Shown here in pieces: positions 33,524 through 59,754 of a stretch of 64,000 nt of DNA. Made by a program: the position numbers and the translations under genes. This DNA comes from Actinomycetota bacterium. Lineage in GTDB: Bacteria > Actinomycetota > Acidimicrobiia > Spongiisociales > ZC4RG35. Where the stretch lies: the NCBI GenBank assembly GCA_046537785.1, contig JBKHKD010000002.1, forward strand, positions 71,082 through 135,081, in the 5' to 3' direction. The notes under the pieces were generated by a model, which worked only from the letters and a program-made list of their open reading frames with translations, was not told where the DNA came from and made no database searches. Positions within the stretch are counted from its first letter, which is position 1. Every line of letters starts with the position of its first letter.

Positions 33524-34455
33524 GCGCCTTCGACCCAATCCTCATCGCCGTTGTGGCCGTCTTCGCCCTGGTCCTGTTCGTGGTCGTCTGGGTGGGGATG
33601 GGTGTTACCCAAGCGCGTGAGGACATGGCCAACCGGTTGGAGCTCTACGGCCGGGACACCGTCGCTGGCGCCCGCGAGGACGAGTTGGCCAAACCTCTGG
33701 CGCAGCGGACTGTAGGCCCTGTCGTCATCAGGTTGGGCAACTTCCTGAAGCGATTCACCCCGGTCGGGTATCTGGAAAAAAAACAGCGCAAGCTGATGCT
33801 CGCGGGCTATCCGGGTAATCTAGATGCTCCGGCATTCACGGTGGTGAAGCTGCTTACCACTGCCCTCGGTCTGGGTGCGGCGTTTGTTCTTATCGATCTT
33901 GGCGCCGATGCGCTCCAGCAGGTCGTGTTATTCGCTTTGCCCATCGCCCTTGGATTCTTCGGACCCGACGCATGGTTAGAACGCAAAGTCGGTGATCGGC
34001 GACAGGCGATGTTGCGTTCACTACCCGACATACTCGACTTGTTAGTGATTTCGGTTGAGGCGGGTCTCGGTTTCGACTCTGCGCTGGCCCGTGTCGTCGC
34101 GACAGTTCCGGGGCCGTTGTCGGAGGAGTTCTACAGAATGCTCCAGGAGACTCGAGTCGGTGTTAGTCGTCGCGACGCAATGAGACACCTCTCGGAACGG
34201 ACCGACCTCGAGGAACTGAGATCGTTCCTCTTGGCCATGATCCAGGCGGAGGCTTTCGGTGTCACCATCGCCAGAGTTCTGCGGGTGCAGGCCGACGAGA
34301 TGCGTGTCAAGAGGCGGCAGCGGGCGCAGGAGAAGGCGTTCGCCGCTCCGGTGAAACTGGTTTTCCCTCTCGTGTTCTGCATCTTTCCGTCGTTGTTCAT
34401 AGTTCTTCTCGGTCCGGCTGCGATCCAGATCGCTGAAGCCTTCGCTTCGACATGA
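33520..34455 (+). CDS. tadC: TadC-like platform protein (GspF-family)
   Basis: 311 aa. TM, then a GspF-like domain (LPDILDLLVISVEAGLGFDSALARV), then TMs. ATGA-coupled. Confidence 0.75.
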   Translation: MSAFDPILIAVVAVFALVLFVVVWVGMGVTQAREDMANRLELYGRDTVAGAREDELAKPLAQRTVGPVVIRLGNFLKRFTPVGYLEKKQRKLMLAGYPGNLDAPAFTVVKLLTTALGLGAAFVLIDLGADALQQVVLFALPIALGFFGPDAWLERKVGDRRQAMLRSLPDILDLLVISVEAGLGFDSALARVVATVPGPLSEEFYRMLQETRVGVSRRDAMRHLSERTDLEELRSFLLAMIQAEAFGVTIARVLRVQADEMRVKRRQRAQEKAFAAPVKLVFPLVFCIFPSLFIVLLGPAAIQIAEAFAST

Positions 34456-40655: not shown

Positions 40656-40705
40656 CCGACTCCATCGTTGAGAATCAGTCTCACCCCCTCGCTACTCTGC
40701 GGAGA

Positions 40706-42712
40706 GTGCCCCGATTCGAAGTGGTATCCGACTTTCAGCCAGCCGGCGATCAACCTAGAGCCATCGACTCGCTCGCCACGGGACTTGAGCGCGGCGACCG
40801 CTATCAGACCCTCCTTGGCATAACCGGGTCGGGAAAGTCAGCAACAATTGCATGGACGATCGAGAGGGTCCAGAAACCCACCCTGGTCCTCGCTCCCAAC
40901 AAGGCGCTGGCGGCACAGCTCGCCAACGAGTTCCGCCAGTTCTTCCCCAGCAACCGGGTCGAGTACTTCGTCTCCTACTACGACTACTACCAGCCGGAGG
41001 CGTACATCCCCCAGACCGACACTTTCATCGAAAAGGACGCCACCATCAACGACGAGATCGACCGGTTGCGTCACTCGGCCACCGCGGGCCTGCTGGTTCG
41101 GGACGATGTGATCATCGTTGCCTCGGTGTCGGCGATCTACGGCCTGGGGTCGCCAGAGCAGTACGAAGGACAGCTGCTAAGGCTCGTCCAGGGCGTCGAG
41201 TATCCGATGCAGGAGGCGATCAAGCGTCTCGTCGACATCCAGTACGAGCGCAACGAGGTGAACCTGGTTAGGGGCAAATTCCGGGTGAAGGGAGACACCC
41301 TGGAGGTCTTCCCTTCCTACGAAGAGACCATCATCAGGGTCCAGTTCTGGGGCGACGAAGTGGAGCGCATCGTCCGGCTCAACCCGGTCACCGGAGAGGT
41401 CGTCGAGGAGATGTCGGAGCTGTTCATCTTTCCGGCCACCCACTACGTGACCGAGCGGGAGCGGCTGCTGCGAGCCATCGCTGGCATCGAGGAGGAGTTG
41501 GAGGAGCGGCTGGTCGAGTTGGAGAAGAGCGGGAAGCTGCTGGAGGCGCAGCGGCTTCGCATGCGCACCAACTACGACCTGGAGATGATGCGGGAGGTCG
41601 GATTCTGCTCCGGCATCGAGAACTACTCACGGCATCTCGACGGTCGTAATCCCGGTCAGGCCCCCTACACCTTGCTGGACTACTTCCCCGACGACTATCT
41701 GACGGTCATCGACGAGTCCCACGTGACGGTGCCTCAGATCGGGGGCCAGTACGAGGGCGACCGTTCGAGGAAGGAAGTGCTGGTCGACCACGGGTTCAGA
41801 CTCCCTTCGGCGAAGGACAACCGGCCGCTTCGTTTCGACGAGTGGCTGGAGCGGGCCAACCAGGTGATCTTCATGTCCGCCACGCCGTCCGATTTCGAGG
41901 TCAGCCATTCCACCCAGGTGGTCGAACAGATCATCAGGCCCACCGGCCTGGTCGACCCCGAGGTGCGGATCAAGCCCACTAAAGGCCAGATCGACGATCT
42001 GCTGGACGAGATCAAGGAGCGTGCCCTCAAGGAGCAGAGGATCCTGGTCACAACCCTCACCAAGAAGATGGCCGAAGACCTCACCGACTACCTGTTGGAG
42101 ATGGGGGTCCGGGCCCGATACATGCACTCGGAGATCGACACCCTGGAGCGTGTCCAGATCATGAGGGAGCTTCGTCTGGGGGAGTTCGACGTGCTCGTCG
42201 GTATCAACCTGCTGCGTGAGGGACTCGACCTACCGGAGGTGTCCCTGGTGGCCATCCTCGATGCCGACAAAGAGGGCTTCCTCCGCTCAGAGACCTCACT
42301 CATCCAGATCATTGGTCGTGCCGCCCGAAATGTCGACGGCCAGGTGGTCATGTATGCCGACGACATAACCGACTCGATGCAGCGCGCCATCTACGAGACC
42401 AACAGGCGTCGGCAGGCGCAGCAGGAGTGGAATGCCGAGCATGGCATCGATCCTCAGACTGTGCGCAAGAGGGTCTCCGACATCCTCGAACTGGTTCAGA
42501 CTGATGCCCCCTCGGCTGATAGACGGAGGAGAGAGGTCGAGAAGCGGGCGCCACTCGATCTCGAGGGAGAGGACCTGGCACGTCTCGTCATGAGTCTCGA
42601 AGAGGAGATGCACGAGGCGGCCAAAGACCTTCGGTTTGAGTATGCGGCTCGATTACGAGACGAGGTGAACGAACTGAAGCGGGAGTTACGCGAGGTAGCG
42701 GAGGCGGGCTGA
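40706..42712 (+). CDS. uvrB: Excinuclease ABC subunit B
   Basis: [20 protein letters not shown], Walker A GITGSGKS, helicase motifs and a C-terminal UVR domain. GTG start 40706; the upstream part of track ORF 40544 overlaps the divergent gene. Confidence 0.95.
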
Positions 42713-42957: not shown

Positions 42958-44532
42958 TCAGCCGGCGTCATTCTGTAGGAAAGGTTCCATCCTGACAATA
43001 GGTCCACCGAACCCCGCCGCGTAATGACGTGTATCGAGTGTCGGGATTGGCTTTCCTGAGAGACACGACATGACCTCCCGGAATATGTTGACGGTAGTGA
43101 TGTCGTCAGGAAGCTCGCCGCGGCACGGCTCAGGAAGGCGGACGGCGCTTATCGTCGAGAATCGTTCTCTCAGTGCCGCATCAGGATTCTTGGAATCTAG
43201 AACCCAGTAGGAGTCTGGTCCGTGATCAGAGAGGATCACTACGATGGCGTCTGGGTCTACCTGACTCAGAAACGCTCGAAGGGTCTGGTTTGCGCATCGA
43301 ACTTGGTCCACCCACGCGTCTCGACGACGTTCCAACTGTTCCTCGGACATGTTTCCATCGTTCATGATGCGACCACCGAGATCAGGGTTGATACGCAAGT
43401 CGCAGTCGGCGTCCAGGAACAGCGGAGGATGTGGCAATGGAATGTGCAAGAAGACGAATTTCGGCGGCCCACGGCGCCAGTCCCTGACGAAGTCGTTCCA
43501 GTGTTCTAGCTGATCGATTCTCGCCAGGTTCAGGGCTGTCGTCGGGTTGTTGGCTTCCGGGTAGAAGAGACCGCCCGCCGGCGTGTTGAGGAGCAGCGCG
43601 TGTCCGGTGATGTCGAGGCCTGGACCAGGCACGCAGATATCGACCTCACCACCGCATTGGTTGTGCCAGTGGTCAGCTTCGGCATGTATGTACGTGTAGC
43701 CATTCGCTTTCAAGAGATTGACCAGGTCATTCTCACCAGCGACTTGACTCGCCAGATATGCGAGGTCTCGATTAGCGAACTCTGCTCCCTCTTGGTGTAC
43801 ATACGACATATTCAAGAGAGCGGGGAGCGAAAAGTGTGTGACTGAGTAATTGGCGACCGACTCGCGGGCGACATCGAATCCCAGGGCTCGGAGGTCATTT
43901 AGGAACGGCTCGTTGTCGTAGCCATAGAGATCTCGAATCACATCGGATCTCCCGTACCCGTCGAGAACTATCAAGACGATGTCTGGCTTCTCGACGAGCG
44001 TTTCGATCTCGATCGGTGTCTGGACACCTACCGATCGTTCCGGAGCCAGGATCGTGCTCGTCGCCGCATACAGCGACAGCGCTCCCGAATATGCCACAGA
44101 AATCACGAAGACGAGAAGCTTGAAGTAGTGCTGGTTGCCATACTTGATTGCCGCTGACAACACGAGTAGGAACACGATTAGGGATGTCGCGGCAGGATCA
44201 AGAGGACCGAAACCCTCTCCAGCGGACCAATGCCAGAAGGAGAGCAGCGTGACAGAAACTGCGGCGAGCGCCCTCCAGCTGGACACATCACGACGGGCAA
44301 ACGGAAGATACAGCCCTGTTGAGATGACGGTGAGTGCGGTACCGATGATGAAAACGCCCTCCACTGAAGCAAGAGCGGCCTGAGTGCCAGTCATGACAGC
44401 CAAGGGGCGATGGAACGACAGGGCGGTCAACTGCAAGAGAGCCCACCAAAGCGAAGGGCGAGCCCGGCTGGTTAATGAAGAGCCAACTCTCGCTGGTGGT
44501 GCGAGAGACTTCCGGTTACCCGCGACAGTCAT
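42958..44532 (-). CDS. Membrane-anchored alkaline-phosphatase-superfamily enzyme, paralog 2
   Basis: N-terminal TM segments; KPDIVLIVLDGYGRSD, SVTHFSLP, FVFLHIPLPHPP and ILSDHGPDS. Noticeably lower GC. Confidence 0.7.
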   Translation of the reverse strand: MTVAGNRKSLAPPARVGSSLTSRARPSLWWALLQLTALSFHRPLAVMTGTQAALASVEGVFIIGTALTVISTGLYLPFARRDVSSWRALAAVSVTLLSFWHWSAGEGFGPLDPAATSLIVFLLVLSAAIKYGNQHYFKLLVFVISVAYSGALSLYAATSTILAPERSVGVQTPIEIETLVEKPDIVLIVLDGYGRSDVIRDLYGYDNEPFLNDLRALGFDVARESVANYSVTHFSLPALLNMSYVHQEGAEFANRDLAYLASQVAGENDLVNLLKANGYTYIHAEADHWHNQCGGEVDICVPGPGLDITGHALLLNTPAGGLFYPEANNPTTALNLARIDQLEHWNDFVRDWRRGPPKFVFLHIPLPHPPLFLDADCDLRINPDLGGRIMNDGNMSEEQLERRRDAWVDQVRCANQTLRAFLSQVDPDAIVVILSDHGPDSYWVLDSKNPDAALRERFSTISAVRLPEPCRGELPDDITTVNIFREVMSCLSGKPIPTLDTRHYAAGFGGPIVRMEPFLQNDAG

Positions 44533-44640: not shown

Positions 44641-45951
44641 ATGGTGGAGCCGAGTCCGACGAACGACGTCGTTTACGTGGCGATGAGTGCAGACATCGTG
44701 CACCCCGGCCACATCAATCTGCTGGACAGAGCCGCTGAGCTGGGCCCGGTCACTGTCGGGCTGCTGACTGACGCAGCGATCGCCAGTTATAAGAGGCTGC
44801 CGCTGATGACTTATGAGGAGCGTCGTGCCGTCGTGGCACAGTTGCGACAGGTGAGTGAATTGATTCCGCAGGAGACCTTGGATTACGAGCCCAATCTTCG
44901 AACCCTGAGGCCGCGTTATGTCGTTCATGGCGACGATTGGCGGGAAGGGGTGCAGGCAAAGGTTCGCCAGCGGGTGATCGAAGTGTTATCCGAATGGGGA
45001 GGCGAGCTAGTCGAGCCCCGCTATACGCCAGGGATCTCCTCGACGAGGGTTCATCAGGCTCTGCTCGAGGTGGGGACCACTCCTGACATTCGCCGACGCG
45101 CCCTTCGCCGGCTTTTGGCCGTGCAGCCGATGACGCGAGTGTTGGAAGCGCACAACGGGTTGACTGGGCTCATCGTTGAACACACCACGGTCACTCAGGC
45201 CGAACGCCAGGTGGGTTTCGACGGTATGTGGCTCTCCAGCCTGACGGATTCGACGATCAAGGGGCGACCGGACACCGAGTACGTGGATCTGACGTCTCGA
45301 AGTGCCACTCTCCAAGAGATCCTCGAGGTCACGACGAAACCGATCCTCTATGACGCGGACACCGGCGGTCTCATCGATCACTTTCAGCTCAAGGTCAAGA
45401 CCCTGGAGCGTCTTGGAGTGTCCGCTGCAGTCATCGAAGACAAGGTCGGGCCGAAGAAGAACTCGCTCTTTGGCACCGATGTCGACCAAACCCAGGACGA
45501 TACCGCCTCGTTCGCTGAGAAGATCCGGGCTGGCAAGGAGGCTCAGGCTACCGAGGATTTCATGGTGATTGCCCGGATCGAGTCGCTGATCCTGGGAAAA
45601 GGTGTGGGCGACGCCCTGGAACGAGCGAGGATCTACGAGGAAGCCGGCGCCGATGCCCTCCTGATTCACTCCCGTGACCCGGACACCTCAGACTTGTTCA
45701 AGGTCCTGGGCGAGCTCGCCGGGTCGATTCCGCTGGTTGCAGTCCCATCTGGCTACTCGCATGTCTACGAGGACGCGCTCTCCCAAGCAGGAGCCTCCCT
45801 CGTCATCTATGCGAACCATCTGTTGCGGGCCGGGTATCCGGCGATGGTCGCCACGGCCAGCTCCATCCTGGAACACGGTCGCGCCAAAGAAGCCGAAGAA
45901 TGCTTACTTCCGATCAGCAACGCTCTCGAGCTCATCCCAGGTAACCGATGA
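44641..45951 (+). CDS. ppm: Bifunctional cytidylyltransferase / phosphoenolpyruvate phosphomutase fusion
   Basis: N-terminal roughly 130 aa TagD-like cytidylyltransferase ([19 protein letters not shown] … VHGDDWREG). C-terminal PEP mutase ([49 protein letters not shown]). Confidence 0.85.
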
Positions 45952-47057
45952 TCGAGGGCCAGGAGGCCATCCGGCTGTTGGAAGGGGCGGGGGCACGACT
46001 GTTCGTCGGAGTGCCCGATTCGCTCATGAAGGGCTTTTGCAGTGCCCTGGGTGACCATCGAGGTCCGGGTCGTCATGTGGTGGCCGCCAACGAGGGAGGG
46101 GCGGTGGCGACTGCGGCGGGCCATTATCTGGCGACAGGACGGCCGGCTGTGGTCTACATGCAGAATTCCGGCTTGGGAAACGCAGCGAGCCCCCTCGTCT
46201 CGCTGGCGAGCCGGCGGGTTTATGGGATCCCGATGCTGCTGATCATCGGATGGAGGGGTGAGCCCGGGACCGTGGATGAGCCGCAGCATGATCACCAGGG
46301 TGATATCACGACTCAGCAGCTCGAGCTTTTGGAGATATCGATATCGGTGGCGGAGCCCGACGACGATGGTTCCGTGTTCGTAGCTGCATACGAGAGGGCC
46401 CTGTCGGGTCAGGTACCCGTGGCAGTTCTGGTCCGCAAAGGAGTATTCGTTCCGCCACCCGAGATCGCTCCCGGTGGCGGATTGACACGGATGTCTGCGA
46501 TGGAGATGCTTCTCCAGCAGCTTCCGACAGACACCGCCTACGTAGCGACAACCGGATACACGGGACGCGAGTTGGCCCTCCTCCGCGCGAAGAGGGAAGA
46601 GAGTTGGTCCTCGGATCTGCTGATGGTGGGATCGATGGGACACGCCGCAGCGATCGCGCTCGGCATCGCCGTAGGGACCCCCGGACGACTCGTTTGCTGT
46701 TTCGATGGAGACGGAGCCGTGGTGATGCATATGGGGACGCTCGCCGCCGTTGGCGCCGAGCAACCTGCGAATCTCCTCCACGTGGTCATGAACAATGGAG
46801 TCCATGAGTCGGTTGGGGGACAACCGTCGGCTCTGAGGGATGCCGACATCCCCGCTTTGGCGCGCAGCTTGGGTTATGTCAGCGCGGAGGTAGCGACAGA
46901 TAAGGACGAATTGGCCAGCGCCGTCGACCGTCTTCACACAGATTCCGGCCCGAATCTGATCGAGGTGAGGATCAGTTCCGGGACGGTGGACGGCTTGCCG
47001 CGACCGTCGAGTCTCCGTGAGCGTGTCGTCGACATGAGGGATTGGTTGAGTGGCTGA
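45948..47057 (+). CDS. ppd: Phosphonopyruvate decarboxylase (ThDP-dependent)
   Basis: 369 aa; ThDP-binding [13 protein letters not shown]…NNG. ATGA-coupled to ppm. Confidence 0.8.
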
Positions 47058-48165
47058 GGTAACCCGAGGCATTGGCGCGCTCGAGACAAGCTTCAGGTCA
47101 GTCGATGGTTCGCCGTGGATCGTGATGAGTGGGAGGACTTCTTTCTCCGCGTCAGGCGCAGAGGCTTCTCTCGAGGATTTCCTCCAATCGGGGGCCAGAC
47201 GCCTGGTTGTCGAAGGGCCGCTTCCGACGACCGACGAGGTCGACCGTCTGGCGGCGGAGGTCGGGTCGAGTAGACCGCGAGCCATACTCGCCGTTGGGGG
47301 CGGACTGGTCATCGACACGATGAAGGCGCTTGCTCTTGCCCTGAGCACAGGAGGGAGTGCGCAGTCATTGCTCAACGGGAGCGCCGTACCGAGCGATGTC
47401 GAGATCCACACAGTTGCTGCCCCCACGACGGCCGGCTCAGGGGCAGAGCGCACGCCATTCGCGGTGCTGTACCACGATGGTGTCAAGCACTCGGTCGACG
47501 ATCCTCGTCTTCTACCGGATCATTCAATAATCGACCCGGCGTTGAGCAGTTCGGCACCTCGCCACGTGGCAGCCTCTGCGGCACTCGACGCTTTGGCTCA
47601 CTCCGTCGAGTCGATGTGGGCATGCCGGTCGACCGTCGAATCTATTGAGGTTGCGGCTCAGGCCCTAGGGCAAATCGTGGACAACATCGAAACTGGCGTT
47701 GTGGGTGAGTCGGCCCCTGCCCGGGAGACCCTCATGTATGCGGCTTCGGACGCGGGCTCCGCCATCGCGGTGTCGAGGACCACCGCGGCCCACGCCCTCT
47801 CGTACCACCTCACCGCTCGACATGGCGTACCTCATGGCCACGCCGTGGCGCTCATGTTGGGACGGGTCATTGCTTTCAACGGTGAAGTCGACGAGTCAAC
47901 CGTGCTTGATCAGCGCGGTCTGGCCCACGTAGCGTCCGTCGCAGCGCGGATCTCTGCTCTTCTCGGCATCGATGAACCGGTCGACGCCCCAGAGCGATTG
48001 CGTGACCTCGTCGCATCGCTGGGTTTGGCGCCGCGAGCGGATGAGGCGGCAGGCGCCATGGTCGATAGGGAGCGATGGATGACTGAAGTGAATGAGCAGC
48101 GACTCGGCAACAATCCACGACGTATCAACCGTGACGATCTATTAGCAATCGTGTGTGACGCATGA
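47050..48165 (+). CDS. Group III iron-containing alcohol dehydrogenase, putative phosphonoacetaldehyde reductase (PhpC/FomC-like)
   Basis: Fe-ADH fold (AVGGGLVIDTMKA … His-rich metal ligands ALAHSVESMWACRSTVESIEVAAQALGQIVDN…AAHALSYHLTARHGVPHGHAV). The GTG start overlaps ppd. Confidence 0.7.
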   Translation: MAEVTRGIGALETSFRSVDGSPWIVMSGRTSFSASGAEASLEDFLQSGARRLVVEGPLPTTDEVDRLAAEVGSSRPRAILAVGGGLVIDTMKALALALSTGGSAQSLLNGSAVPSDVEIHTVAAPTTAGSGAERTPFAVLYHDGVKHSVDDPRLLPDHSIIDPALSSSAPRHVAASAALDALAHSVESMWACRSTVESIEVAAQALGQIVDNIETGVVGESAPARETLMYAASDAGSAIAVSRTTAAHALSYHLTARHGVPHGHAVALMLGRVIAFNGEVDESTVLDQRGLAHVASVAARISALLGIDEPVDAPERLRDLVASLGLAPRADEAAGAMVDRERWMTEVNEQRLGNNPRRINRDDLLAIVCDA

Positions 48166-49316
48166 GAAAACTTCTCGAGCGCACCCGTCTGGCCATGGCG
48201 GAATCCAACAACATGGGCAAGTTGCTCACCCTCCCCAATGATGACCGTGCGGTCGTTGTCTACGCCGAAGATACGTTTAGCTACATCCAGCTCAAGGGAT
48301 ACCTGCGTGCCCTCTGGGTGAACCACGGGGTGCCTTATCAATACGTGACCTCGGCTCCCGATGATCCTCTTCTCGAAGATCCTCCCCCCGGGGCCACCAC
48401 CTGGTTCATTCGCGAACAACTGGCACGGATGATGAGCTCACTCGAGTGTGGCATCTTCATCACAACCATGCCCGATCTGGGAAACTTCCAGGTTCCCCGG
48501 CCGAAGTCTGGGAGGGCTTTGTATGTCTTCCACTCGCTCAACAGCACTCATACCGCCTATCGCTCTGGCGCATTCGACAACTATGACCAATTCATGTGCA
48601 CGGGACCGCATCACATCGAGGAGTTGGGTCGACTGCGGCCCGACTCGAATCCGGTGCTTTCTGAGGTGGGCTACTACAAGCTCGACCTGATCAGGGAAGA
48701 ACACGCAGATTGGCTTGAACGTGACGCGATCGAGGAGGATCTCGTCCTCCTTGCCCCATCGTGGGGGCGCCATAATCTTCTCGAGGCACACGGAAGTGAG
48801 ATCATCGCCTCGCTGGTAACTTCCGGTTTCCGGGTGATCGTCCGGCCCCATCCGCAATTCTTTCACTCGCTCTATCCCGAAGGCGCCGGGGTGATCGGGC
48901 GCCTCCAAGAGGAGTTTGGCGTCGACCATTCGGTCGAATTCGAGCTCAACATCGACTCTCAAGACTCATTCCATCGCAGCGCCCTGATGATCAGCGACTG
49001 GTCCGGTGCCGCCTACGAGTACGCGCTGGGGACACATCGGCGGGTCCTGTTCATCGATACCCCACAGAAGATCTTCAACCCGGGCTGGGAGCAGATCGGT
49101 CTCGCCAGCTTCGAGGGAGAGATGCGAGACCAGGTGGGTGAAGTGCTGGCCACCGATTCGGTGCATTCCACCGGGAACGTTGCCTACGACGTGATCCGAC
49201 GAAGCCGCTACTCCCGCTCCGACCTCGCGGAATTGGCGAGCCAAAAAATCTTCAACCTGGATGAGAGCGCCAGGGTCGGTGCCGAAGTAATCGCAGATAC
49301 CCTCTCTCGCTCATGA
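48162..49316 (+). CDS. TagF/TagB-like CDP-alcohol phosphotransferase family protein
   Basis: LLAPSWG (compare the TagF YAPTWR motif), VIVRPHP and ISDWSGAAYEYA (compare DYSS). ATGA-coupled upstream and downstream. Confidence 0.6.
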   Translation: MRKLLERTRLAMAESNNMGKLLTLPNDDRAVVVYAEDTFSYIQLKGYLRALWVNHGVPYQYVTSAPDDPLLEDPPPGATTWFIREQLARMMSSLECGIFITTMPDLGNFQVPRPKSGRALYVFHSLNSTHTAYRSGAFDNYDQFMCTGPHHIEELGRLRPDSNPVLSEVGYYKLDLIREEHADWLERDAIEEDLVLLAPSWGRHNLLEAHGSEIIASLVTSGFRVIVRPHPQFFHSLYPEGAGVIGRLQEEFGVDHSVEFELNIDSQDSFHRSALMISDWSGAAYEYALGTHRRVLFIDTPQKIFNPGWEQIGLASFEGEMRDQVGEVLATDSVHSTGNVAYDVIRRSRYSRSDLAELASQKIFNLDESARVGAEVIADTLSRS

Positions 49317-50860
49317 CTTTCCGAGACCCGGATCTGTCCGTGCCTCCGCGGCGGCTTCACTGGGTGGACTTTGCCCTCATCGCGATACCGGCCTTCCAAT
49401 TGCCACTTTTGGTCGTCGCTGAGAATGGTATCGGTATTGGACATCCGGAGCTTCTGTTGTTCTTCGGCGGTCTGGTATGGGGGTTAGGAGCGCTCATTCT
49501 CGTTGTCGTGCGCCGGCTCGGTGTCCCTGGCTCGGTCTCGGTACTCGGAGCGTGGCTCTGTGTCTACCTGTTCATGAACACTGGGGCGATTCCCGATAGG
49601 TTCGGATATCCACTCGGGCTGCTCGTGACTCTCGGGACTCTCACCATCTTGCTCTATCTGGTGTCTCAGAGGCCAGAGATCCGTAGTCGGCTCGTCCTAG
49701 GTCTAGCGAGTGTCCTGCTGCTGGCCGAGATACTCATCACCGGGTATGCGACCTTCGCCGACTTTGGGGAAAGTCGGGTCGCTTCTAGTCCGAGCTCGGT
49801 CGACGTCGAACTCGAGCAGAAGCCCGACGTGGTGATGATCATTGCGGACGCTTACGCGGGCGTAGATGGCTTGAGTCGATATTTCGACGTCGATTCACGA
49901 GTGAAGAACACGTACTCGATGAGCGGATTCTGGGTTCCAGACTTGGCATTCTCTCCATACGCAAGTACCGACACCGCACTCTCGACGATGCTGGACATGA
50001 GCTATCCCCTTACTGCCGGACCGGGCATAACTCGTGCGACAAGGCGGGATCTGTACAGGCTGATCGGAGGCGACAACCGCGTGGTCGATGTCTTTCGACA
50101 AAACGAATACCAGGTCACCATGATCGAATCCGGTTGGAGCGGATCGACCTGTGGTGATGTGATCGATACCTGTCCGAGCCCATTTATCGATGAGAGTGTT
50201 TATATCATGCTCGCCGAGACTTGGATTGGCGATCTCGTCCTAGACAGGTTTGGCTACGCGTTCACGGTGGGTACTCGGTCGTCGATGTCATGGCTGGATG
50301 ACAATCTCGTCGAACTGGCGACCGACGAGAAGCCGGACTTCGTTTTTGCCCATCTCGGTATACCGCATCCACCAATGTTCCTCGACTCGGATTGTGAGCT
50401 GCAGGTGACCCCGGACCGGAACGGTGTGACCATGCAGCGACGAGACGTTCCAACCGACGACAGGAAGAAGCTCTATCTCGAGCAGGCAGCGTGTGTCGAT
50501 TCGTTCGTCACGTCACTCGCCGACTCATTGCCGAATGATGTTGTGTTGATACTGACCGGCGACCATGGGACCGACTCGCACCACCAACTGGCAGAGCATC
50601 CGGAGGATTGGTCGACTGACATGATTCGCGAACGATTGAACACGATGTTTGCCTTTCGCGGTCCCGAGGAATGCCGACCGCCCGAGCCCGTTCTCACGGC
50701 CGACCTCTTCCGGCATCTGTTCACCTGCCTGAGTGACGAATCATTGCCGGTGCCACCGCAACAGTTGTACATCTATGCCGCTCTGGAGATCGATGGGGCA
50801 CCCTCACCGATCGTCGAGGTGGAGCCATCGGTGATCGCTGAACTTGTCGGTGGGAGCTGA
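49313..50860 (+). CDS. Membrane-anchored alkaline-phosphatase-superfamily enzyme, paralog 3
   Basis: N-terminal TM segments; KPDVVMIIADAYAGVDG, FVFAHLGIPHPPMF and ILTGDHGTDS. Last gene of the phosphonate operon. Confidence 0.7.
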   Translation: MTFRDPDLSVPPRRLHWVDFALIAIPAFQLPLLVVAENGIGIGHPELLLFFGGLVWGLGALILVVVRRLGVPGSVSVLGAWLCVYLFMNTGAIPDRFGYPLGLLVTLGTLTILLYLVSQRPEIRSRLVLGLASVLLLAEILITGYATFADFGESRVASSPSSVDVELEQKPDVVMIIADAYAGVDGLSRYFDVDSRVKNTYSMSGFWVPDLAFSPYASTDTALSTMLDMSYPLTAGPGITRATRRDLYRLIGGDNRVVDVFRQNEYQVTMIESGWSGSTCGDVIDTCPSPFIDESVYIMLAETWIGDLVLDRFGYAFTVGTRSSMSWLDDNLVELATDEKPDFVFAHLGIPHPPMFLDSDCELQVTPDRNGVTMQRRDVPTDDRKKLYLEQAACVDSFVTSLADSLPNDVVLILTGDHGTDSHHQLAEHPEDWSTDMIRERLNTMFAFRGPEECRPPEPVLTADLFRHLFTCLSDESLPVPPQQLYIYAALEIDGAPSPIVEVEPSVIAELVGGS

Positions 50861-51289
50861 AGAGCTTGGACTTGACCACGGCGGTCTGACGTAAGGGCGC
50901 TACCTAGGGCACGCGGTCTACAAGATCCATCCGGATCATAGGTTCCCCCTGTCGCATGGGGTGTCTGCCGGGAGATACCCATCCCTTTGGGCGACCTGAG
51001 CAATAGGACGGCCACCCGGCGGATCGGTTCACACAGGATCCTCCGGCCAGCTGGCGTCAGCGGAGCGTTAGCGCGCATGACAAGCCTCCTTTTGGGTGTT
51101 GGTTGCGTGCAAGCACCGCACAACCAGGGAGGCTCAAACCCTCACAACGTCAACAACCTCTCTTAATCAGAACACCTAGCCGTTCTTGAGCGTGAGCCCG
51201 GGCTGTGGACAGGAGTGCAGGAAGCGGGATTGCTTCATGGGTGGAAGAGTCCTTTGGAAACAAGGGTTCCCGTTCGATAATGACGAGTT

Positions 51290-52672
51290 GTGAACAAGTT
51301 GTCCGTCCTCATGCCCGTCTACAACGAGTCGCGCACCTTGCGGACGATTGTCGCCAAGGTGCTTGCCTCACCGGTCGACGCTGAGATCGAGTTGGTCTGT
51401 GTAGATGATTGCTCGAAAGATGATTCTCTTGCGATTCTTCACGAGCTGGCAGAGGCCGATTCCCGGATCAGGGTCATTGCCCAGTCGGTGAACTTGGGCA
51501 AGGGCAAAGCGATCCGTACCGCTATCGGGCACATGACCGGCGATGTCGGGATCATCCAGGACGCCGACTTGGAGTATGACCCGAATGAGTACCCGCTCGT
51601 TCTGGCGCCGCTCCTGGAAGGACGAGCCGACGCAGTGTACGGCTCCCGGTTCGCCTCCAGCGAGCAGCGTCGTGTCCTCTTCTTCTGGCACGCGCTAGGC
51701 AACAAGCTGCTCACGCTCATGTCGAATATGGCCAACGACCTCAATCTCACCGACATGGAGACCTGCTACAAGGCGGTTCGCGCCGACGTTCTCAAGGAGC
51801 TTCGACTCACCAGCGACCGGTTCGGGCTTGAGCCGGAGATCACCGCTCGCCTCGCCCAGTGGGGCGCCCGTATCTACGAGGTGCCGATCAGTTATCACGG
51901 ACGCACCTACGCCGAAGGCAAGAACATCGGTTGGAGAGACGGAATGGAAGCACTCTGGCTCATCTTTAAGTTCCGGCTTCTCGACACTCGAGCGACGAAC
52001 GAAGACTCGGTCGTCACGAGGCAGAGCCTGGGGAGTGCCCCCCGCTTCCGCCGCTGGATCCTGTCATCGTTTGACGACTACCTGAGAGACACCGTGCTCG
52101 AGATCAATGCCGGGCCGGGGCACACTACTAGCCATCTGCTCGACGCAAGGAGACTGATCGTCTCTGATGAGGAGCTGGTCCACGTCGAATCGCTGCGTCG
52201 TCGTTTCGGTCACTTGGAGAACGTCGAGGTGATGACGAGCGAAGAGTTGGATCACTCAGACGTGCGGGTCTCGTCGGCTCTGGTGTTCGACGGGTTACAA
52301 CGTGCCGGCGAGCCCAAGGAGTTCTTGGCCTCGGTAGCGTCTCATGTCGAGTCGGGCGGTCATGTTCTCATCCAGGTGCCCGCGGGCCCTGAGCTCTTCG
52401 GACCCACCGACAGGGCCGCTGGGCATGTGAAACGCTTCGACCGCCAAGATATCGAAGATGTCGTTCGCGCCGCCGGGTTGGAGCTCGTGGATATTGCCGA
52501 GGTGAACCGTCTCGGAGCCCTCGGCTGGAGGCTCCATCATTGGCTGGGGAAGGGGCGCATCACGACGTCGGAGGCTCGTCTCTTCGACCTCCTGGTTCCG
52601 CTGGTACGCTCGCTCGACCCCATCTTCCCCGGCCGTGGCCTCAGTCTGCTGGTGGTGGCTCGATCGCCTTGA
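51290..52672 (+). CDS. GT2 (DPM1/GtrB-like polyprenyl-phosphate glycosyltransferase) fused to a C-terminal class-I SAM methyltransferase-like domain
   Basis: LSVLMPVYNE, CVDDCSKD and IQDADLEYDP (GT-A DxD), then VLEINAGPGHTT, a Rossmann-type MTase motif I. Confidence 0.7.
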   Translation: MNKLSVLMPVYNESRTLRTIVAKVLASPVDAEIELVCVDDCSKDDSLAILHELAEADSRIRVIAQSVNLGKGKAIRTAIGHMTGDVGIIQDADLEYDPNEYPLVLAPLLEGRADAVYGSRFASSEQRRVLFFWHALGNKLLTLMSNMANDLNLTDMETCYKAVRADVLKELRLTSDRFGLEPEITARLAQWGARIYEVPISYHGRTYAEGKNIGWRDGMEALWLIFKFRLLDTRATNEDSVVTRQSLGSAPRFRRWILSSFDDYLRDTVLEINAGPGHTTSHLLDARRLIVSDEELVHVESLRRRFGHLENVEVMTSEELDHSDVRVSSALVFDGLQRAGEPKEFLASVASHVESGGHVLIQVPAGPELFGPTDRAAGHVKRFDRQDIEDVVRAAGLELVDIAEVNRLGALGWRLHHWLGKGRITTSEARLFDLLVPLVRSLDPIFPGRGLSLLVVARSP

Positions 52673-52743
52673 CCGAAGTCCCTGTGGAACGGGCGCTCAG
52701 GCTCAAGTCGGCCTTGCCCCTGCCGATGGCATAACAGAGTCCT

Positions 52744-53484
52744 TTGCGTTGGGAGCACGCAATGTATCGAAATCTGAGAGTCATGGGCTTAGTACCTGTG
52801 CTCGATGAGGAGAAGAAGGTCGGTCTCGTTCTCGAGCGAGTCCCCACCGACGTCGTCGACCTGACCCTGGTGATCGATGACGGATCGACCGACGCCTCAG
52901 CTCAGGTAGCGCGCTCCAAAGGTGCCAAAGTGATCGAACTCGGGGCCACTGTCGGTGTCGGAGCAGCGATCAGGACCGGGTTCCAGTACGCGATCGCAGA
53001 AGGGTTCGATGTGGTCGTCGTGATGGCGGGAAATAACAAGGACTCCCCGGAGGAGATCCCGCTGCTCTTGGACGAATTGACCGATCGCCCGGCGGACTTG
53101 GTTCAGGGCTCCAGATGGTCGGGCGATGCTAGTGACTTCGGAGAGATGCCGGCCTATCGCAAGGTGGCCACACGCCTTCACCCGATGCTGTTCAATCTCA
53201 TCTCCCCCGTCAAGCTGACAGACACGACCAACGGCTTTCGGGCTGTCCGTACCAGCCTCCTCGCCGATGAGGACCTGAATCTCGATCAGAGCTGGCTCGA
53301 CGACTACGAACTCGAGGTCTATCTGCTCTATAGGGCGGCCCAGCTCGGGTACGAGCTCTCCGAGGTCGGCGTCACCAAGAGATACCCTCCGAAGGCATTG
53401 GGGCAGACAAAAATGAAGCCGATATCGGGATGGTGGTCGATCCTTCGTCCGCTGGTTCTGCTGGCCGTACGGCTCAAGAGGTGA
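52744..53484 (+). CDS. GT2 family glycosyltransferase (DPM1-like)
   Basis: LVIDDGSTD and VVVVMAGNNKDSPEE…LVQGSRW. Confidence 0.75.
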   Translation: MRWEHAMYRNLRVMGLVPVLDEEKKVGLVLERVPTDVVDLTLVIDDGSTDASAQVARSKGAKVIELGATVGVGAAIRTGFQYAIAEGFDVVVVMAGNNKDSPEEIPLLLDELTDRPADLVQGSRWSGDASDFGEMPAYRKVATRLHPMLFNLISPVKLTDTTNGFRAVRTSLLADEDLNLDQSWLDDYELEVYLLYRAAQLGYELSEVGVTKRYPPKALGQTKMKPISGWWSILRPLVLLAVRLKR

Positions 53485-53499
53485 GGAAGTGACTCGAAA

Positions 53500-54531
53500 A
53501 TGATGACAGGAATCGGAGTCGTGGGTGCCGGTCATTGGGGTCCCCACCTGATACGAAACTTCAACGATCATCTGTCCAGTCAGGTCCTCTGGGTAGCGGA
53601 GAGGGATGAGCGTCGCAAGAAGGGCATCTCGGAACGGTTTCCGGGGACGGCAGTCACTGCTGATGTGGATGAGATTCTGTCGGATGACCGGGTCGATGCC
53701 GTCATCGTGGCGACACCGACTTCTACCCACGCTGCGATTGTTCAAGATGCGCTGGAAGCCGACAAGCACGTACTAGTGGAAAAGCCCATCGCCTATGGTC
53801 TTGAGGACTCCATCGCCCTTTGCGAGATGGCCGACAGCCGAGGTCTCACGTTGATGGTGGGGCACGTGTTCCTGTTCAACCCAGCGTTCCGTGCCGCACG
53901 GGATTACATCCACCGGGGCGACTTGGGGCTCATCAGATACCTGTCAATGGTTCGTACCAATCTGGGTCCGGTTCGCACCGACGTGAACGCTGCTTGGGAC
54001 TTGGCCAGCCACGACGTTTCCATCGCGAACTATTGGCTGGATGCGCTGCCTAAGAGTGTCAGTGCAAGAGGAGGGAGTTGGCTGAACGAAGGGATCGACG
54101 ACGTCGTCTTTGCGACTCTCTCCTATCCGGATGATGTGCTCGTGCACATCGAAGCTTCGTGGCTGAATCCGAGAAAGCGACGTCTGGTGGCGGCTATCGG
54201 GTCTGATCGCATGTTGACGGTGGACGACATGGATCTGAACGAGCCAATTCGCCTTTATGACAAGGGGGTCCTAGAGCGCCCGAAGGAGGACTTCTCTGAT
54301 ACCTTCGCCGGTTTCCGCAATCAGATCAGAGAGGGAGAGGTGCGTATCCCCCATGTCACCGGAGGCGAGCCCTTGCGAACCGAGTGTGACGAGTTTTTGC
54401 GCCGCATCGCGGGCAGCGATGACACCCTTTCCGATGGATGGGAGGGAGCACGGGTCGTCGCGGTACTCGACGCGATTGACCGATCGATCGTTGAGGGCGG
54501 TGCCTCCATCGTCGTGGAGAAGATTCGATGA
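53500..54531 (+). CDS. Gfo/Idh/MocA-family NAD(P)-dependent sugar oxidoreductase (WbpB-like)
   Basis: GIGVVGAGHWGPHLIRNF Rossmann motif plus a Gfo/Idh/MocA C-terminal domain. Confidence 0.85.
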   Translation: MMTGIGVVGAGHWGPHLIRNFNDHLSSQVLWVAERDERRKKGISERFPGTAVTADVDEILSDDRVDAVIVATPTSTHAAIVQDALEADKHVLVEKPIAYGLEDSIALCEMADSRGLTLMVGHVFLFNPAFRAARDYIHRGDLGLIRYLSMVRTNLGPVRTDVNAAWDLASHDVSIANYWLDALPKSVSARGGSWLNEGIDDVVFATLSYPDDVLVHIEASWLNPRKRRLVAAIGSDRMLTVDDMDLNEPIRLYDKGVLERPKEDFSDTFAGFRNQIREGEVRIPHVTGGEPLRTECDEFLRRIAGSDDTLSDGWEGARVVAVLDAIDRSIVEGGASIVVEKIR

Positions 54532-55631
54532 AGGTTCCCCTGGTCGATCTGGCCTGGCAACACCGGCAGATCGCGGATGAGGTCGAGCGGGGCCTGCATG
54601 AGGTGATGGAGACCACTGCCTTCATTCACGGGCCACAACTACATTCGTTCGAGGAGGCGTTCGCGTTGTTTCTCGGAGTCGAGCACTGTGTCGGTGTGGG
54701 GAGCGGGACCGATGCCCTCGAGTTGACGGTGAGAGCCCTCGACATCGGGCCCGGAGATGTCGTTGTGGTCCCGGCCAACAGCTTCATCGCCAGCGCCCTC
54801 GGCATCCTCCGGGCCGGAGCCGACGTCGTCCTGGTCGATTGCCATCCCGACACCTACCTGATGGACGTGGCGCGGGTGGCCGACCTCATCGACTCCAAGG
54901 TGAGGGCGATCATGCCCGTCCATCTCTACGGTCAGATCGCGCCGATCGAGGACATGCCCGACTTGCCTGAGAGGGTGGTGGTCATCGAGGATGCCGCGCA
55001 ATCGCAAGGAGCCACCCGTAACGGGGAAGGGTCAGGCTCGTTCGGTGTGGCGGCTGCGACGAGCTTCTATCCCGGTAAGAACATCGGGGCCTACGGCGAC
55101 GGGGGGGCGGTGCTGACGGACGATGACGCCCTCGCCGCCCAGGTGAGGAAGTTGGGCAACTGGGGGTCGGCCGAGAAGTACCACCATCCCGAGTTGGGGT
55201 TCAACTCCCGACTCGACACCGTTCAGGCGGTCATCCTCCAGGCGAAGTTAAGCCGCCTCGCGGAGTGGAACGGGATGCGCCGCGCCGCCGCCGAGTGGTA
55301 TCGAGAGGCTCTCCACGACGTGGAGAAGGTGTTGCTTCCACTCACACTGGAGGGGAACGAGCACATCTGGCATCTCTTCGTGATTCGGGTACCAAACCGG
55401 GATGCGGTGTTGGCGCGGTTACATGGGCGTGGTGTGGGCGCCGGCATCCATTATCCGGTTCCAATGCACCTCCAGGGAGCGCTATCTGATCTGGGCTATC
55501 GCAGAGGTGACTTTCCGGTAACAGAGAGAGTTGCCGGTGAGATCCTTTCACTGCCCATCTACCCGGGCATCACCGAAGCCCAGCAACAGTACGTGGTCGA
55601 GTCCCTGAAAGAGGCATTGGCGTTCTCCTGA
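54528..55631 (+). CDS. DegT/DnrJ/EryC1/StrS-family PLP sugar aminotransferase (WbpE-like)
   Basis: VPLVDL…, GVGSGTDAL and the family Lys region; 367 aa; ATGA-coupled. Confidence 0.9.
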   Translation: MKVPLVDLAWQHRQIADEVERGLHEVMETTAFIHGPQLHSFEEAFALFLGVEHCVGVGSGTDALELTVRALDIGPGDVVVVPANSFIASALGILRAGADVVLVDCHPDTYLMDVARVADLIDSKVRAIMPVHLYGQIAPIEDMPDLPERVVVIEDAAQSQGATRNGEGSGSFGVAAATSFYPGKNIGAYGDGGAVLTDDDALAAQVRKLGNWGSAEKYHHPELGFNSRLDTVQAVILQAKLSRLAEWNGMRRAAAEWYREALHDVEKVLLPLTLEGNEHIWHLFVIRVPNRDAVLARLHGRGVGAGIHYPVPMHLQGALSDLGYRRGDFPVTERVAGEILSLPIYPGITEAQQQYVVESLKEALAFS

Positions 55632-55632
55632 C

Positions 55633-56199
55633 ATGGCCACGGACTATTTCGCCCACCCCACTGCTCTGGTCGAGACCGACGACGTCGGTTCGGGGAGCAG
55701 AGTCTGGGCTTTTGCCCACGTGATGGAAGGTGCGATCCTAGGACGGCATTGCAAGGTCGGAGACCATTCGTTCATTGAGGGCGGTGCGTCGCTGGGTGAT
55801 CGTGTGACTGTCAAGAACGGGTGTCTCATCTGGCACGGAGTACACATCGGCGACGATGTCTTCGTTGGTCCGAATGTCGTGTTCACCAACGACATGAGAC
55901 CTCGGGTTCGGTATCAGACGACTTCTCAGGAATGGCTGGACACCGAGGTAGGGGAGAGAGCTTCAATCGGGGCGAACTCGACGATCCTCTGCGGAATCCG
56001 CATCGGACGCAACGCGATGGTCGGGGCGGGGTCCGTCGTAACCAAGAGTGTGAAAGACCACGCCATGGTCGTGGGCAATCCGGCCCGACAGGTCGGCTGG
56101 GCGTGTGACTGCGGTGAGTCTCTCGATGGGGACCTTACATGTGCGGCATGCGGCCGCTTCTATCGAAAGGGCTTGAAGGGTTTGGAGGAAATCGAATGA
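55633..56199 (+). CDS. Hexapeptide-repeat (left-handed beta-helix) sugar N-acetyltransferase (WbpD-like) with C-terminal Cys4 ribbon
   Basis: Hexapeptide repeats (IGDDVFVGPNVVFTND…) and a CDCGESLDGDLTCAACGRFY tail. Confidence 0.8.
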   Translation: MATDYFAHPTALVETDDVGSGSRVWAFAHVMEGAILGRHCKVGDHSFIEGGASLGDRVTVKNGCLIWHGVHIGDDVFVGPNVVFTNDMRPRVRYQTTSQEWLDTEVGERASIGANSTILCGIRIGRNAMVGAGSVVTKSVKDHAMVVGNPARQVGWACDCGESLDGDLTCAACGRFYRKGLKGLEEIE

Positions 56200-57299: not shown

Positions 57300-57348
57300 T
57301 GCGTGAGTCAGGCATCGACAGGTCCGCCCATAGAGAGTCGGGTATCGC

Positions 57349-59625: not shown

Positions 59626-59754
59626 CGGAGGGACATAAAAGCGCGTGATCTCTTCCGACGACCGACATATCAGTCGTGCAGTTGTTAGGATCAGAACATG
59701 TGTTCGAAGGTGATGCGCATTACACTTGCGTAACTTCCGACCACCAGGCGAGCT

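Follow-up and report, generated by a model that had tools for sequence, protein, structure and literature searches.

A divergent TagF-like protein of an Actinomycetota phosphonate operon as a predicted 2-hydroxyethylphosphonyl transferase

The gene studied here is an open reading frame (ORF) of the + strand (48162-49316, ATG start) in a 64-kb stretch of contig JBKHKD010000002.1 of an Actinomycetota bacterium, the whole of which we call the window. Its 384-residue product is identical to NCBI MFP3881051.1, 'hypothetical protein ACLFWH_01890' of an Actinomycetota metagenome-assembled genome (MAG), and is best explained as a soluble, peripheral or cytoplasmic enzyme with a predicted glycosyltransferase-B (GT-B) fold that belongs to a divergent TagF-like family. 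Comparative genomics and structure prediction support the reading that this enzyme would use cytidine monophosphate-linked 2-hydroxyethylphosphonate (CMP-HEP) as its donor and would transfer 2-hydroxyethylphosphonate (HEP) to the hydroxyl of an acceptor, and we hold this reading to be moderately probable. That the focal ORF is a real gene follows from its many homologues: a word-indexed search returned 688, and a family profile run against 1.84 billion representatives gave 3,470 matches at E ≤ 1e-3 and 997 at E ≤ 1e-30, these ~1,000 strong relatives being counted at 50% clustering.

A phosphonate operon predicted to make CMP-HEP

The focal gene is the fourth of the five genes of an operon, which are arranged as follows.

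44641-45951, + strand: fusion of a CTP_transf_like domain and phosphoenolpyruvate (PEP) mutase (PntC-Ppm); PF01467 and PF13714, with TIGR02320 at 353 bits, above its cut-off
45948-47057, + strand: phosphonopyruvate decarboxylase Ppd (phosphonopyruvate to phosphonoacetaldehyde); TIGR03297 at 395 bits, cut-off 312.5
47050-48165, + strand: iron-containing alcohol dehydrogenase (Fe-ADH), PhpC/FomC type by context; PF00465 and PF25137, best NCBIfam match TIGR03405 Phn_Fe-ADH at 145 bits, below its cut-off
48162-49316, + strand: focal TagF-like gene; 384 residues, GT-B, predicted CMP-HEP:acceptor 2-hydroxyethylphosphonyl transferase
49313-50860, + strand: EptA-like membrane enzyme with ~5 N-terminal transmembrane (TM) segments and a sulfatase-fold domain; PF00884 at 28.4 bits

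All four junctions overlap. Stop and start codons share the letters ATGA at the Ppm/Ppd, Fe-ADH/focal and focal/EptA-like junctions, and the Ppd stop overlaps the GTG start of Fe-ADH by 8 nucleotides; the five-gene operon is translationally coupled. A first-pass annotation of this DNA had placed the focal ORF between the Fe-ADH gene and an LtaS-like gene in a phosphonate operon, and the coordinates, domains and overlaps confirm that placement.

The donor that the operon would supply is suggested by the layout of the PntC-Ppm fusion, in which a Fom1-type cytidylyltransferase occupies residues ~9-144 and the PEP mutase residues ~153-436. The N-terminal domain of the fusion matches that of Fom1 (PDB: 5x3d) at 209 bits (E=1e-60), with near-identity over 136 residues. 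In Fom1, the fused cytidylyltransferase is reported to convert HEP and CTP into CMP-HEP (PMC6697681). The Ppm part of the fusion shows in alignment the motif EDKxxxxxNS, which is that of true PEP mutases (PMC6697681). Since a Fom1-type cytidylyltransferase is present together with Ppm, Ppd and Fe-ADH, CMP-HEP is the expected activated product of the operon. The first-pass annotation had also considered that this cytidylyltransferase makes cytidine diphosphate (CDP)-glycerol. The scores argue against it, as the domain matches TagD at only 33.7 bits (1coz) and 26.4 bits (2b7l), and the TagD model TIGR01518 gives 37.7 bits against a cut-off of 165.

We also searched for genes that would supply a CDP-polyol. 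Six-frame phmmer searches of the 64-kb window with PF01467-type, NTP_transf_3-type and focal queries found no second copy of any of them, the PF01467 and NTP_transf_3 queries returning the Ppm fusion only, and no polyol-phosphate gene was found among the 30 ORFs (19.6-64 kb) scanned with Pfam. The earlier statement that the window carries no polyol genes is borne out by both searches. A LicD domain was not found in the operon or in the downstream genes scanned; LicD is found in other loci for HEP or 2-aminoethylphosphonate (AEP), namely L120 and L084.

A predicted GT-B fold and remote kinship with TagF and TarL

The likeness of the focal protein to TagF is seen in its predicted structure. An AlphaFold2 (AF2) model built from 40 homologues has a predicted local distance difference test score (pLDDT) of 95.3 and a predicted template-modelling score (pTM) of 0.91, and consists of two Rossmann domains and terminal helices only, which is the GT-B arrangement. 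In a Foldseek comparison of the model with the PDB, ranks 1-9 are all taken by Staphylococcus epidermidis TagF (8e-13 to 1.6e-11), and the first GT-B protein other than TagF follows at 4e-8; the identity between the focal protein and TagF is 11-12%. The additional N-terminal domain that TagF-like polymerases are reported to carry ahead of the GT-B part (PMC10901376) is absent from the 384-residue protein and from its model. The CDP-alcohol phosphotransferase domain PF01066 is likewise absent at Pfam E ≤ 10, and a TM scan found no hydrophobic segment.

At the level of domain families, the focal protein matches no Pfam or NCBIfam family at E ≤ 0.01, and PF04464 is its sole Pfam match at E ≤ 10. 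All of the 51 relatives scanned singly match PF04464 (E ≤ 1, best 1.8e-12), and no other family is matched consistently; the relatives above its threshold include those of L065 (28.6 bits) and L128 (60.5 bits) and the fusion proteins described below (35-45 bits). A family profile made from 51 sequences reaches TarL in the PDB at E=0.35 and is the only profile to do so, pairing ..vvRPHP.. with ..FKMHP.. and ..dlmisDwSGAAleyA.. with ..DLLISDYSSLIYEYA.. of TarL. When aligned by hhalign with a canonical PF04464 protein encoded in L108, the same profile gives a probability of 89.5% (E=2e-6), with APSWG paired to APTWR, the His of RPHP to the His of RGHL, and SDWSGAA to SDYSGIW. The canonical protein itself, which scores 229 bits to PF04464, aligns with TagF (PDB: 3l7i) at E=2e-23, and this alignment supplies the landmarks of TagF, W443-H444 in IQTWHG and H584 in LLRMHY. 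The label 'TagF-like' is thus solid at the level of remote homology and fold, and at that level only. The first-pass annotation had named strong orthology to a known CDP-glycerol transferase clade, together with polyol-phosphate genes elsewhere in the genome, as speaking against a phosphonate role. The focal protein is orthologous to none of the characterised transferases for CDP-glycerol or CDP-ribitol: TarL is reached only at E=0.35, and TagF is not reached by sequence.

Among the invariant residues of the focal protein are F123-H124, A198-P199-x-W201, R228-x-H230-P231, D279-x-S281-G282 and K303. E286 is invariant only within the 40 closer homologues and is replaced by D in some distant members. 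Two motifs stand out in the C-terminal half, APSWG (198-202) and SDWSGAAYEY (278-287), the latter pairing with SDYSGIWVDY of the canonical L108 protein and SDYSSLIYEY of TarL; TagF has APTWR and TDYSSVMFDY. Two invariant histidines are essential in TarL and TagF (PMC10901376): one, which follows a Trp, is the base (TagF H444/TarL H300), and the other (TarL H433/TagF H584) is located at the alpha-phosphate. Focal H230, the His of RPHP, is unchanged across the 51 family sequences and is the counterpart of TagF H584/TarL H433, because the alignments lead from it to TarL and to the canonical L108 protein, and from the latter to TagF. By analogy, H124 is a candidate for the catalytic base: it is invariant and stands directly after strand 116-122 of the N-terminal Rossmann domain. 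It follows a Phe in the focal clade, and among the more distant members a His, Gln, Asn or Phe.

One PDB entry needs care when residues are mapped in this way. Entry 3l7m, titled 'TagF, H548A', differs from the wild type 3l7i at His584 (LLRMHY to LLRMAY), and at position 548 TagF has an Arg, that of the APTWR motif. Two digits of H584A seem to have been swapped in the title, a point that bears on any mapping of catalytic residues.

Gene neighbourhoods of the family

A scan of one genome per GTDB species gave 191 relatives, of which the best 80 were fetched; the counts below are over 83 loci, and the HEP genes were located by tblastn with the window proteins. The focal clade is tied to phosphonate genes across phyla. 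Three distant homologues with 52, 44 and 45% identity, each encoded on a long contig, adjoin PntC-Ppm, Ppd and Fe-ADH, and for homologues at least 40% identical the HEP genes are adjacent in every fetched locus except L013, where the contig is truncated, L020 and L021. The HEP-linked loci span Acidimicrobiia and other Actinomycetota, Acidobacteriota/Terriglobia and Planctomycetota. L003 and L015 have a module of four genes only, the HEP trio and the TagF-like gene, and no glycan or sulfatase genes nearby. Over the whole set, ppm lies within 8 kb of the TagF-like gene in 26 of 83 loci. As ppm is carried by just ~5% of bacterial genomes (PMC8942020), this co-location is far from chance.

In a neighbour-joining tree, the window protein groups with the members from L004 through L019, all in Fom1-type contexts, with a bootstrap support of 55%, which rises to 200/200 once L020, L022 and L023 join the clade. 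A single origin of all ppm-associated members was considered and rejected, as it appeared in 0/100 bootstraps, and the tree points to an association between the TagF-like family and ppm that arose, or was exchanged, several times.

The reverse question is how often HEP clusters carry such a gene. Querying metagenomes with the window PntC-Ppm fusion gave 80 loci (L087-L166), with Ppd in 72 and Fe-ADH in 66. The focal-type TagF-like family is the top recurrent neighbour after these core genes (13/80 loci, 8 of them directly after Fe-ADH), followed by a cluster of DegT aminotransferases (9 loci) and, in third place, by a cluster of canonical PF04464 proteins, c5 (7/80, 4 directly after Fe-ADH). 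The canonical protein of L108 introduced above (4659-5915, 229 bits) is an example of the latter in a Fom1-type HEP cluster. By their sequences, the two lineages indicate that TagF-type genes were recruited to HEP clusters at least twice.

Among relatives with 32-37% identity, ppm is mostly absent, and ~37 of the 57 loci with such relatives have another conserved block in common. It consists of a sulfatase-fold membrane protein, a ~1,020-residue PPDK_N/PEP-utilizers protein, a Peptidase_C26/GATase protein, an NTP_transf_3 protein and the TagF-like protein, to which a YidC-domain protein and a formyltransferase-like protein are often added. The block of Pseudomonas canadensis Feb-92 (L065:1219-12438) is an example, and similar ones are found in L025, L026, L028, L030-L038, L041, L042, L045, L049, L052, L054, L061-L066, L069, L073-L076, L079 and L080; besides P. 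canadensis, the hosts of these distant relatives include SAR86, Solirubrobacterales, Dadabacteria and Phycisphaerae. The ~1,020-residue protein matches NCBIfam PRK05849 at 890 bits, above its cut-off, and the best match of the amidotransferase is 'gamma-glutamyl-CDP-amidate hydrolase' at 119 bits, below its cut-off. The block resembles the enzyme set Cj1418, Cj1417 and Cj1416, by which Campylobacter makes cytidine diphosphoramidate for the O-methyl phosphoramidate of its capsule (PMC11800397); a 2022 review considered the glutamine kinase of this pathway specific to C. jejuni (PMC9561416). The blocks suggest that phosphoramidate surface decoration may occur well outside Campylobacter. The wider TagF-like family is not phosphonate-specific, and most of its distant members lie in phosphoramidate-type contexts. 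What had been proposed at first, that the protein may be a phosphonate-specific member of the TagF family, is supported for the focal clade, which travels with the HEP genes, and does not hold for the wider family.

A third kind of context is seen in L023, L040, L048 and L053, where the clusters contain Ppd, Fe-ADH, a stand-alone NTP_transf protein, a Ppm fusion and a protein of 453-473 residues. In L053 (1902-9107) the Ppm fusion is of the Ppm-NTP_transf_3 type, and the protein of the 453-473-residue class scores 300 bits with the methylphosphonate synthase of Nitrosopumilus maritimus (6b9s) and 219 bits with the HEP dioxygenase 6b9r, so the TagF-like family may also handle methylphosphonate.

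Natural fusions connect the TagF-like domain with membrane functions. P0253 (1207 residues) joins Sulfatase, YidC (60KD_IMP) and TagF-like domains, and P0262 (1326 residues) joins YidC, TagF-like and Sulfatase domains; several others are YidC + TagF-like, and one is TagF-like + formyltransferase-like (the fusion proteins are P0253, P0262, P0258, P0277, P0278, P0294 and P0230, with loci L084-L086). The P0262 fusion follows LicD, LicD, Aminotran_5 and NTP_transf_3 genes, an AEP-type context. It has seven hydrophobic segments between the TagF-like and sulfatase domains, and because this number is odd the two domains would face opposite sides of the membrane. It is unexpected that a YidC paralogue should be given over to envelope decoration. 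The same domain also appears in annotation: JGI labels many stand-alone TagF-like homologues (P0028, P0034, P0053 and others) as 'YidC/Oxa1 family membrane protein insertase' despite their having no TM segment, a label probably carried over from the YidC + TagF-like fusion proteins.

In every one of these contexts, to judge from the encoded enzymes, the neighbours make, or plausibly make, a CMP-linked phosphorus compound whose phosphorus bears a small substituent, be it hydroxyethyl, methyl, aminoethyl or amino. By analogy, a TagF-type mechanism would accept such a CMP-linked donor in place of CDP-glycerol.

Predicted route to the cell surface, alternatives and known systems

Gene order, domain identities, fold, conserved motifs and neighbourhoods, and the fusions are what the analysis shows. 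From these we infer the following route, and with it the donor and its chemistry, what H124 and H230 do in catalysis, the acceptor and the part played by the EptA-like enzyme. Ppm would convert PEP to phosphonopyruvate, Ppd would decarboxylate this to phosphonoacetaldehyde, Fe-ADH would reduce the aldehyde to HEP, and the Fom1-type cytidylyltransferase domain would turn HEP into CMP-HEP. In analogy to TagF and TarL, the focal enzyme would then deprotonate a hydroxyl on an acceptor associated with the membrane. H124 is the candidate base for this step, and CMP would depart with the assistance of H230, to leave a phosphonate mono-ester, acceptor-O-P(O)(O-)-CH2CH2OH. Our preferred acceptor is a lipid-linked intermediate on the inner membrane face. 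The EptA-like enzyme (49313-50860), possibly together with its paralogue at 42958-44532, would then place HEP on a surface glycan made by the downstream glycosyltransferase genes. The proposal made at the outset, a TagF-type enzyme acting on the CMP-phosphonate of the operon, finds support in the Fom1-type domain, the conserved neighbourhoods and the fold.

The partner enzyme encoded at 49313-50860 matched no solved structure in a search of the PDB sequences. Its AF2 model, made from 21 sequences (pLDDT 88.9), has full-length EptA (5fgn, 1.5e-9), PbgA/YejM and MCR-1 as the best Foldseek matches, with TM-scores of ~0.4. D179, E272, H347, H352, D417 and H418 are invariant, and T219 is near-invariant. 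The earlier description of this neighbour as LtaS-like is right in the general architecture; the nearest folds are those of EptA, MCR-1 and PbgA. EptA- and LtaS-type enzymes transfer a phospho-headgroup, taken from a lipid, to an acceptor on the outer face of the membrane. It is for this reason, the transfer of a headgroup from an outer-face lipid donor, that we favour a relay, and from its model the 49313-50860 enzyme is a candidate outer-face phosphonyl transferase. Of the 83 loci, 35 have sulfatase-fold genes along with the TagF-like gene, and these include phosphonate as well as phosphoramidate contexts.

Two further features of the window bear on the acceptor.

42958-44532, - strand: second membrane-anchored sulfatase-fold protein with ~3 TM segments; PF00884 at 41.7 bits, TM scan
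51290-59796, mixed strands: candidate acceptor-glycan genes between the operon and uvrA; domain and TM scans

The first of these diverges from the operon, and its homologues lie beside the cluster in L001, L004-L007 and L024. The second comprises genes for a GT2 glycosyltransferase with a methyltransferase domain, a further GT2 resembling polyprenyl-phosphate-sugar synthases, a GFO_IDH dehydrogenase, a DegT aminotransferase, a hexapeptide acetyltransferase and three polytopic membrane proteins, two on the + strand and one on the - strand. These are the probable acceptor-glycan genes, tied to the operon by adjacency alone. The GT2+methyltransferase gene is kept after the focal gene in L001, L004-L007 and L024. 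In the window, a 430-bp gap (50861-51289) separates it from the EptA-like gene; the gap has a weak promoter-like site at 51254-51281 and no Rfam match, and is probably the operon boundary. Across the operon region, neither scans for promoters and terminators nor a search of Rfam found anything that rose above background. Within 53500-56199, the dehydrogenase (best match UDP-N-acetylglucosamine 3-dehydrogenase), the aminotransferase and the acetyltransferase are encoded consecutively, and by their sequences the trio looks like a route to a 2,3-diacetamido-2,3-dideoxy sugar, possibly part of the acceptor glycan.

The phosphonate and glycan genes form an island bracketed by uvrB (40544-42712) and uvrA (59755-62577). 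The same bracketing occurs in the related loci L001/L005, L007 and L024, one of them labelled as an Acidobacteriota MAG, and in L001 uvrA is seemingly broken into two ORFs. The domain scans of the 30 ORFs mentioned above found DNA repair, Tad pilus, two-component system and glycan genes. The Tad/Flp pilus set (28063-35798), with RcpC/CpaB, a ParA-like ATPase, a T2SSE ATPase, VWA+T2SSF and T2SSF proteins, lies downstream of polA and rpsA and is unrelated to the focal finding.

Several observations weigh against the focal protein being a TagF-type enzyme that acts on CMP-HEP. It scores 11.1 bits with PF04464 (E=0.18), below the gathering score of 22.1; the designation 'TagF-like' therefore stands on remote homology and fold and fails at the Pfam threshold. 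Neither the focal protein, nor an above-threshold relative, nor a 40-sequence profile matched TagF in searches of the PDB sequences. The N-terminal domain of the family gave no sequence alignment to TagF or TarL with hhalign, leaving the equivalence of H124 and H444 unaligned, and for this reason the role of H124 is kept as that of a candidate. L020 and L021 (39-43% identity) have no ppm within the fetched DNA, the flank being 8 kb on each side in L020 and just 2.7 kb upstream in L021. The examined DNA is 64 kb of the genome, and CDP-polyol genes may sit elsewhere. As for the HEP clusters at large, 30 of the metagenome loci have enough flank, of which 6 carry the focal type and 3 the canonical PF04464 type, and other HEP clusters have LicD, GT1, WbsX or Wzx genes, or only glycosyltransferases. 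A TagF-type gene is a recurrent option in HEP clusters (9/30) and not an obligatory part of them, and the idea that the TagF-like gene is the standard consumer of CMP-HEP was rejected. Because of these counts (13/80, and 6/30 with enough flank), our claim is limited to one alternative transferase, the most recurrent one. The last point concerns Asn127, three residues after H124, which all 11 members of clade A share, whereas the other 40 sequences have Val, Ile or Ala there; it is kept as Asn in 38 of the 40 close homologues. It was dropped as a determinant of HEP specificity, as the HEP-context members of L147, L157 and L161 have Val or Leu, and is better seen as a clade signature.

The reading that keeps most of the proposed chemistry differs in the acceptor. 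With the same donor and chemistry, the focal enzyme would modify a sugar of an undecaprenyl-linked or soluble glycan in the cytoplasm, with no lipid relay, and the sulfatase-fold proteins would be unrelated. FtaD (CD0244) of Clostridioides difficile, which is TagF-like, takes CDP-N-methylthreonine as its donor and puts N-methyl-phosphothreonine onto N-acetylglucosamine (GlcNAc) in vitro (bioRxiv 10.64898/2026.02.12.704994). Direct modification stays alive because FtaD acts directly on the GlcNAc of the final glycoconjugate and because the HEP loci L003, L008, L012 and L015 have no sulfatase-fold gene within the fetched DNA; glycan genes also follow the operon in the window. Against it, the focal stop overlaps the EptA-like start, sulfatase-fold genes recur in 35/83 loci of both contexts, and fusions of YidC-like, TagF-like and sulfatase domains exist, with an odd count of hydrophobic segments in P0262. 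We regard direct modification as possible, and as the less likely fate of the phosphonate.

The hydroxyl of HEP invites a further thought, that the focal enzyme could be a polymerase which transfers CMP-HEP repeatedly onto the hydroxyl of the previous HEP unit, and so builds a poly(2-hydroxyethylphosphonate) analogous to poly(glycerol phosphate). Fe-ADH is present in nearly all ppm-linked loci of the clade, so that the product keeps its hydroxyl; the polymerases TagF and TarL add each new unit to the terminal hydroxyl of the one before (PMC10901376); and an EptA/LtaS-like partner recalls lipoteichoic acid synthesis. The focal protein is, however, a bare GT-B of 384 residues without the polymerase-type N-terminal domain, the donors of the MpnS-type and phosphoramidate-type relatives offer no hydroxyl for extension, and the surveyed literature mentions HEP on polysaccharides and no poly(HEP). 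Polymerization is, in our view, improbable.

Given its GT-B fold, the protein could in principle be a glycosyltransferase, or an enzyme like UDP-GlcNAc 2-epimerase, that works on a sugar nucleotide for the downstream glycan genes and leaves the phosphonate untouched. None of the 51 members matches a Pfam glycosyltransferase or Epimerase_2, as against all 51 for PF04464; the APxW, RxH and SDxSG..EY motifs can be aligned to those of TagF, TarL and the canonical PF04464 protein; the Foldseek values of TagF and of other GT-B proteins are four to five orders of magnitude apart; and the link to genes for CMP-P(X) donors persists where no glycan genes are nearby (L003, L015). We consider a sugar-nucleotide enzyme very doubtful. 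Least convincing is an ordinary CDP-glycerol or CDP-ribitol phosphotransferase, with the CDP-polyol coming from elsewhere or from the Ppm-fused cytidylyltransferase and with the phosphonate only capping or decorating a poly(polyol-phosphate), a reading to which the TagF-like fold and motifs, the NCBI name 'CDP-glycerol glycerophosphotransferase family protein' of some relatives, the weak TIGR01518 match (37.7 bits) on the PF01467 domain and the 64-kb extent of the examined DNA lend something, and which is made highly unlikely by the cytidylyltransferase domain (Fom1 209 bits against TagD 34 bits), by the lack of a TagD-, TarI- or second TagF-like ORF in any frame of the window, by a focal family that is not orthologous to TagF/TarL, and by a gene that travels with Ppm, Ppd and Fe-ADH across phyla, in two loci as those four genes alone.

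Looking beyond HEP transfer by the focal enzyme, we tentatively suggest that the family could belong to an unrecognised and widespread envelope module, although we would not yet call this likely. In such a module, a cytoplasmic TagF-like enzyme would load a CMP-linked P-X group on a membrane carrier, and YidC-like and EptA-like enzymes would export and install it. For the focal enzyme the donor would be CMP-HEP; for the relatives, to go by their contexts, it would be CMP-methylphosphonate, CMP-AEP or cytidine diphosphoramidate. If the module exists, the TagF-like family would be the missing transferase for HEP and methylphosphonate esters, phosphoramidate decoration would extend beyond Campylobacter, and YidC paralogues would act outside protein insertion.

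CMP activation is reported to be the predominant logic of bacterial phosphonate biosynthesis, and the steps that come after it are described as enigmatic (PMC6697681); the transferase candidates named in the surveyed papers are of the LicD type. Neither TagF nor glycerophosphotransferases come up in the main texts of PMC6697681 and PMC8942020. Our full-text literature search found no paper linking phosphonate with TagF or glycerophosphotransferases; an earlier mention may nevertheless exist. The focal protein offers an expressible candidate of 384 residues, with predicted catalytic residues, for the step that attaches phosphonates to bacterial surfaces. Should this be confirmed, compounds with a C-P bond would join the donors of TagF-like enzymes, and there would be a handle for spotting in genomes which surfaces carry phosphonate or phosphoramidate decorations. 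If it is refuted, the focal gene would be an ordinary TagF-like transferase of a surface-glycan locus.

Among known systems, EptA, MCR-1 and LtaS resemble the partner enzyme, which has N-terminal TM helices, an extracytoplasmic sulfatase-fold domain, conserved Asp/His metal ligands and a near-invariant Thr; it differs in matching no solved structure by sequence and in TM-scores of ~0.4. The early fosfomycin pathway of Streptomyces, with Fom1, has the same cytidylyltransferase-Ppm fusion, a close cytidylyltransferase domain, and a route to CMP-HEP via Ppd and Fe-ADH. In that pathway, CMP-HEP is C-methylated by a radical S-adenosylmethionine (SAM) enzyme and is later hydrolysed. The operon described here, in contrast, is without radical-SAM methylation or hydrolysis genes and continues with transferase-like and membrane sulfatase-fold genes. 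With the Pnt pathway it would share a Ppm-cytidylyltransferase fusion, a CMP-phosphonate and transfer to a cell-surface glycan (PMC6697681). The characterised PntCs belong to PF12804, are AEP-specific and go with proposed LicD-like transferases (PMC6697681), whereas here we find a PF01467 cytidylyltransferase of the Fom1 type, HEP as the predicted phosphonate and a TagF-like candidate.

The closest functional precedent, set beside the focal protein by description, is FtaD, a TagF-like enzyme that moves a non-polyol phospho-group to a glycan; its CDP-amino acid donor forms a phosphodiester, its acceptor is the O-GlcNAc of flagellin, and no phosphonate is involved. With its CDP-N-methylthreonine donor, FtaD also makes the common statement that TagF enzymes normally use CDP-glycerol or CDP-ribitol, repeated in the first-pass annotation, too narrow. 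To TagF, TarL and TagB (PF04464; PDB: 3L7I, 8VA1) the focal protein is related by its GT-B fold, with TagF as the nearest structure, by the APxW, RxH and SDxSG..EY motifs in the same order, and by the predicted chemistry, in which the hydroxyl of an acceptor attacks a CMP-bound phosphorus and CMP leaves (PMC10901376). It differs from them in having 'FH' instead of 'WH' at the candidate base, in having no CDP-glycerol or CDP-ribitol genes nearby, and in its predicted donor, CMP-HEP, which has a C-P bond. The novelty lies in a TagF-like lineage that is divergent and whose predicted donor contains a C-P bond.

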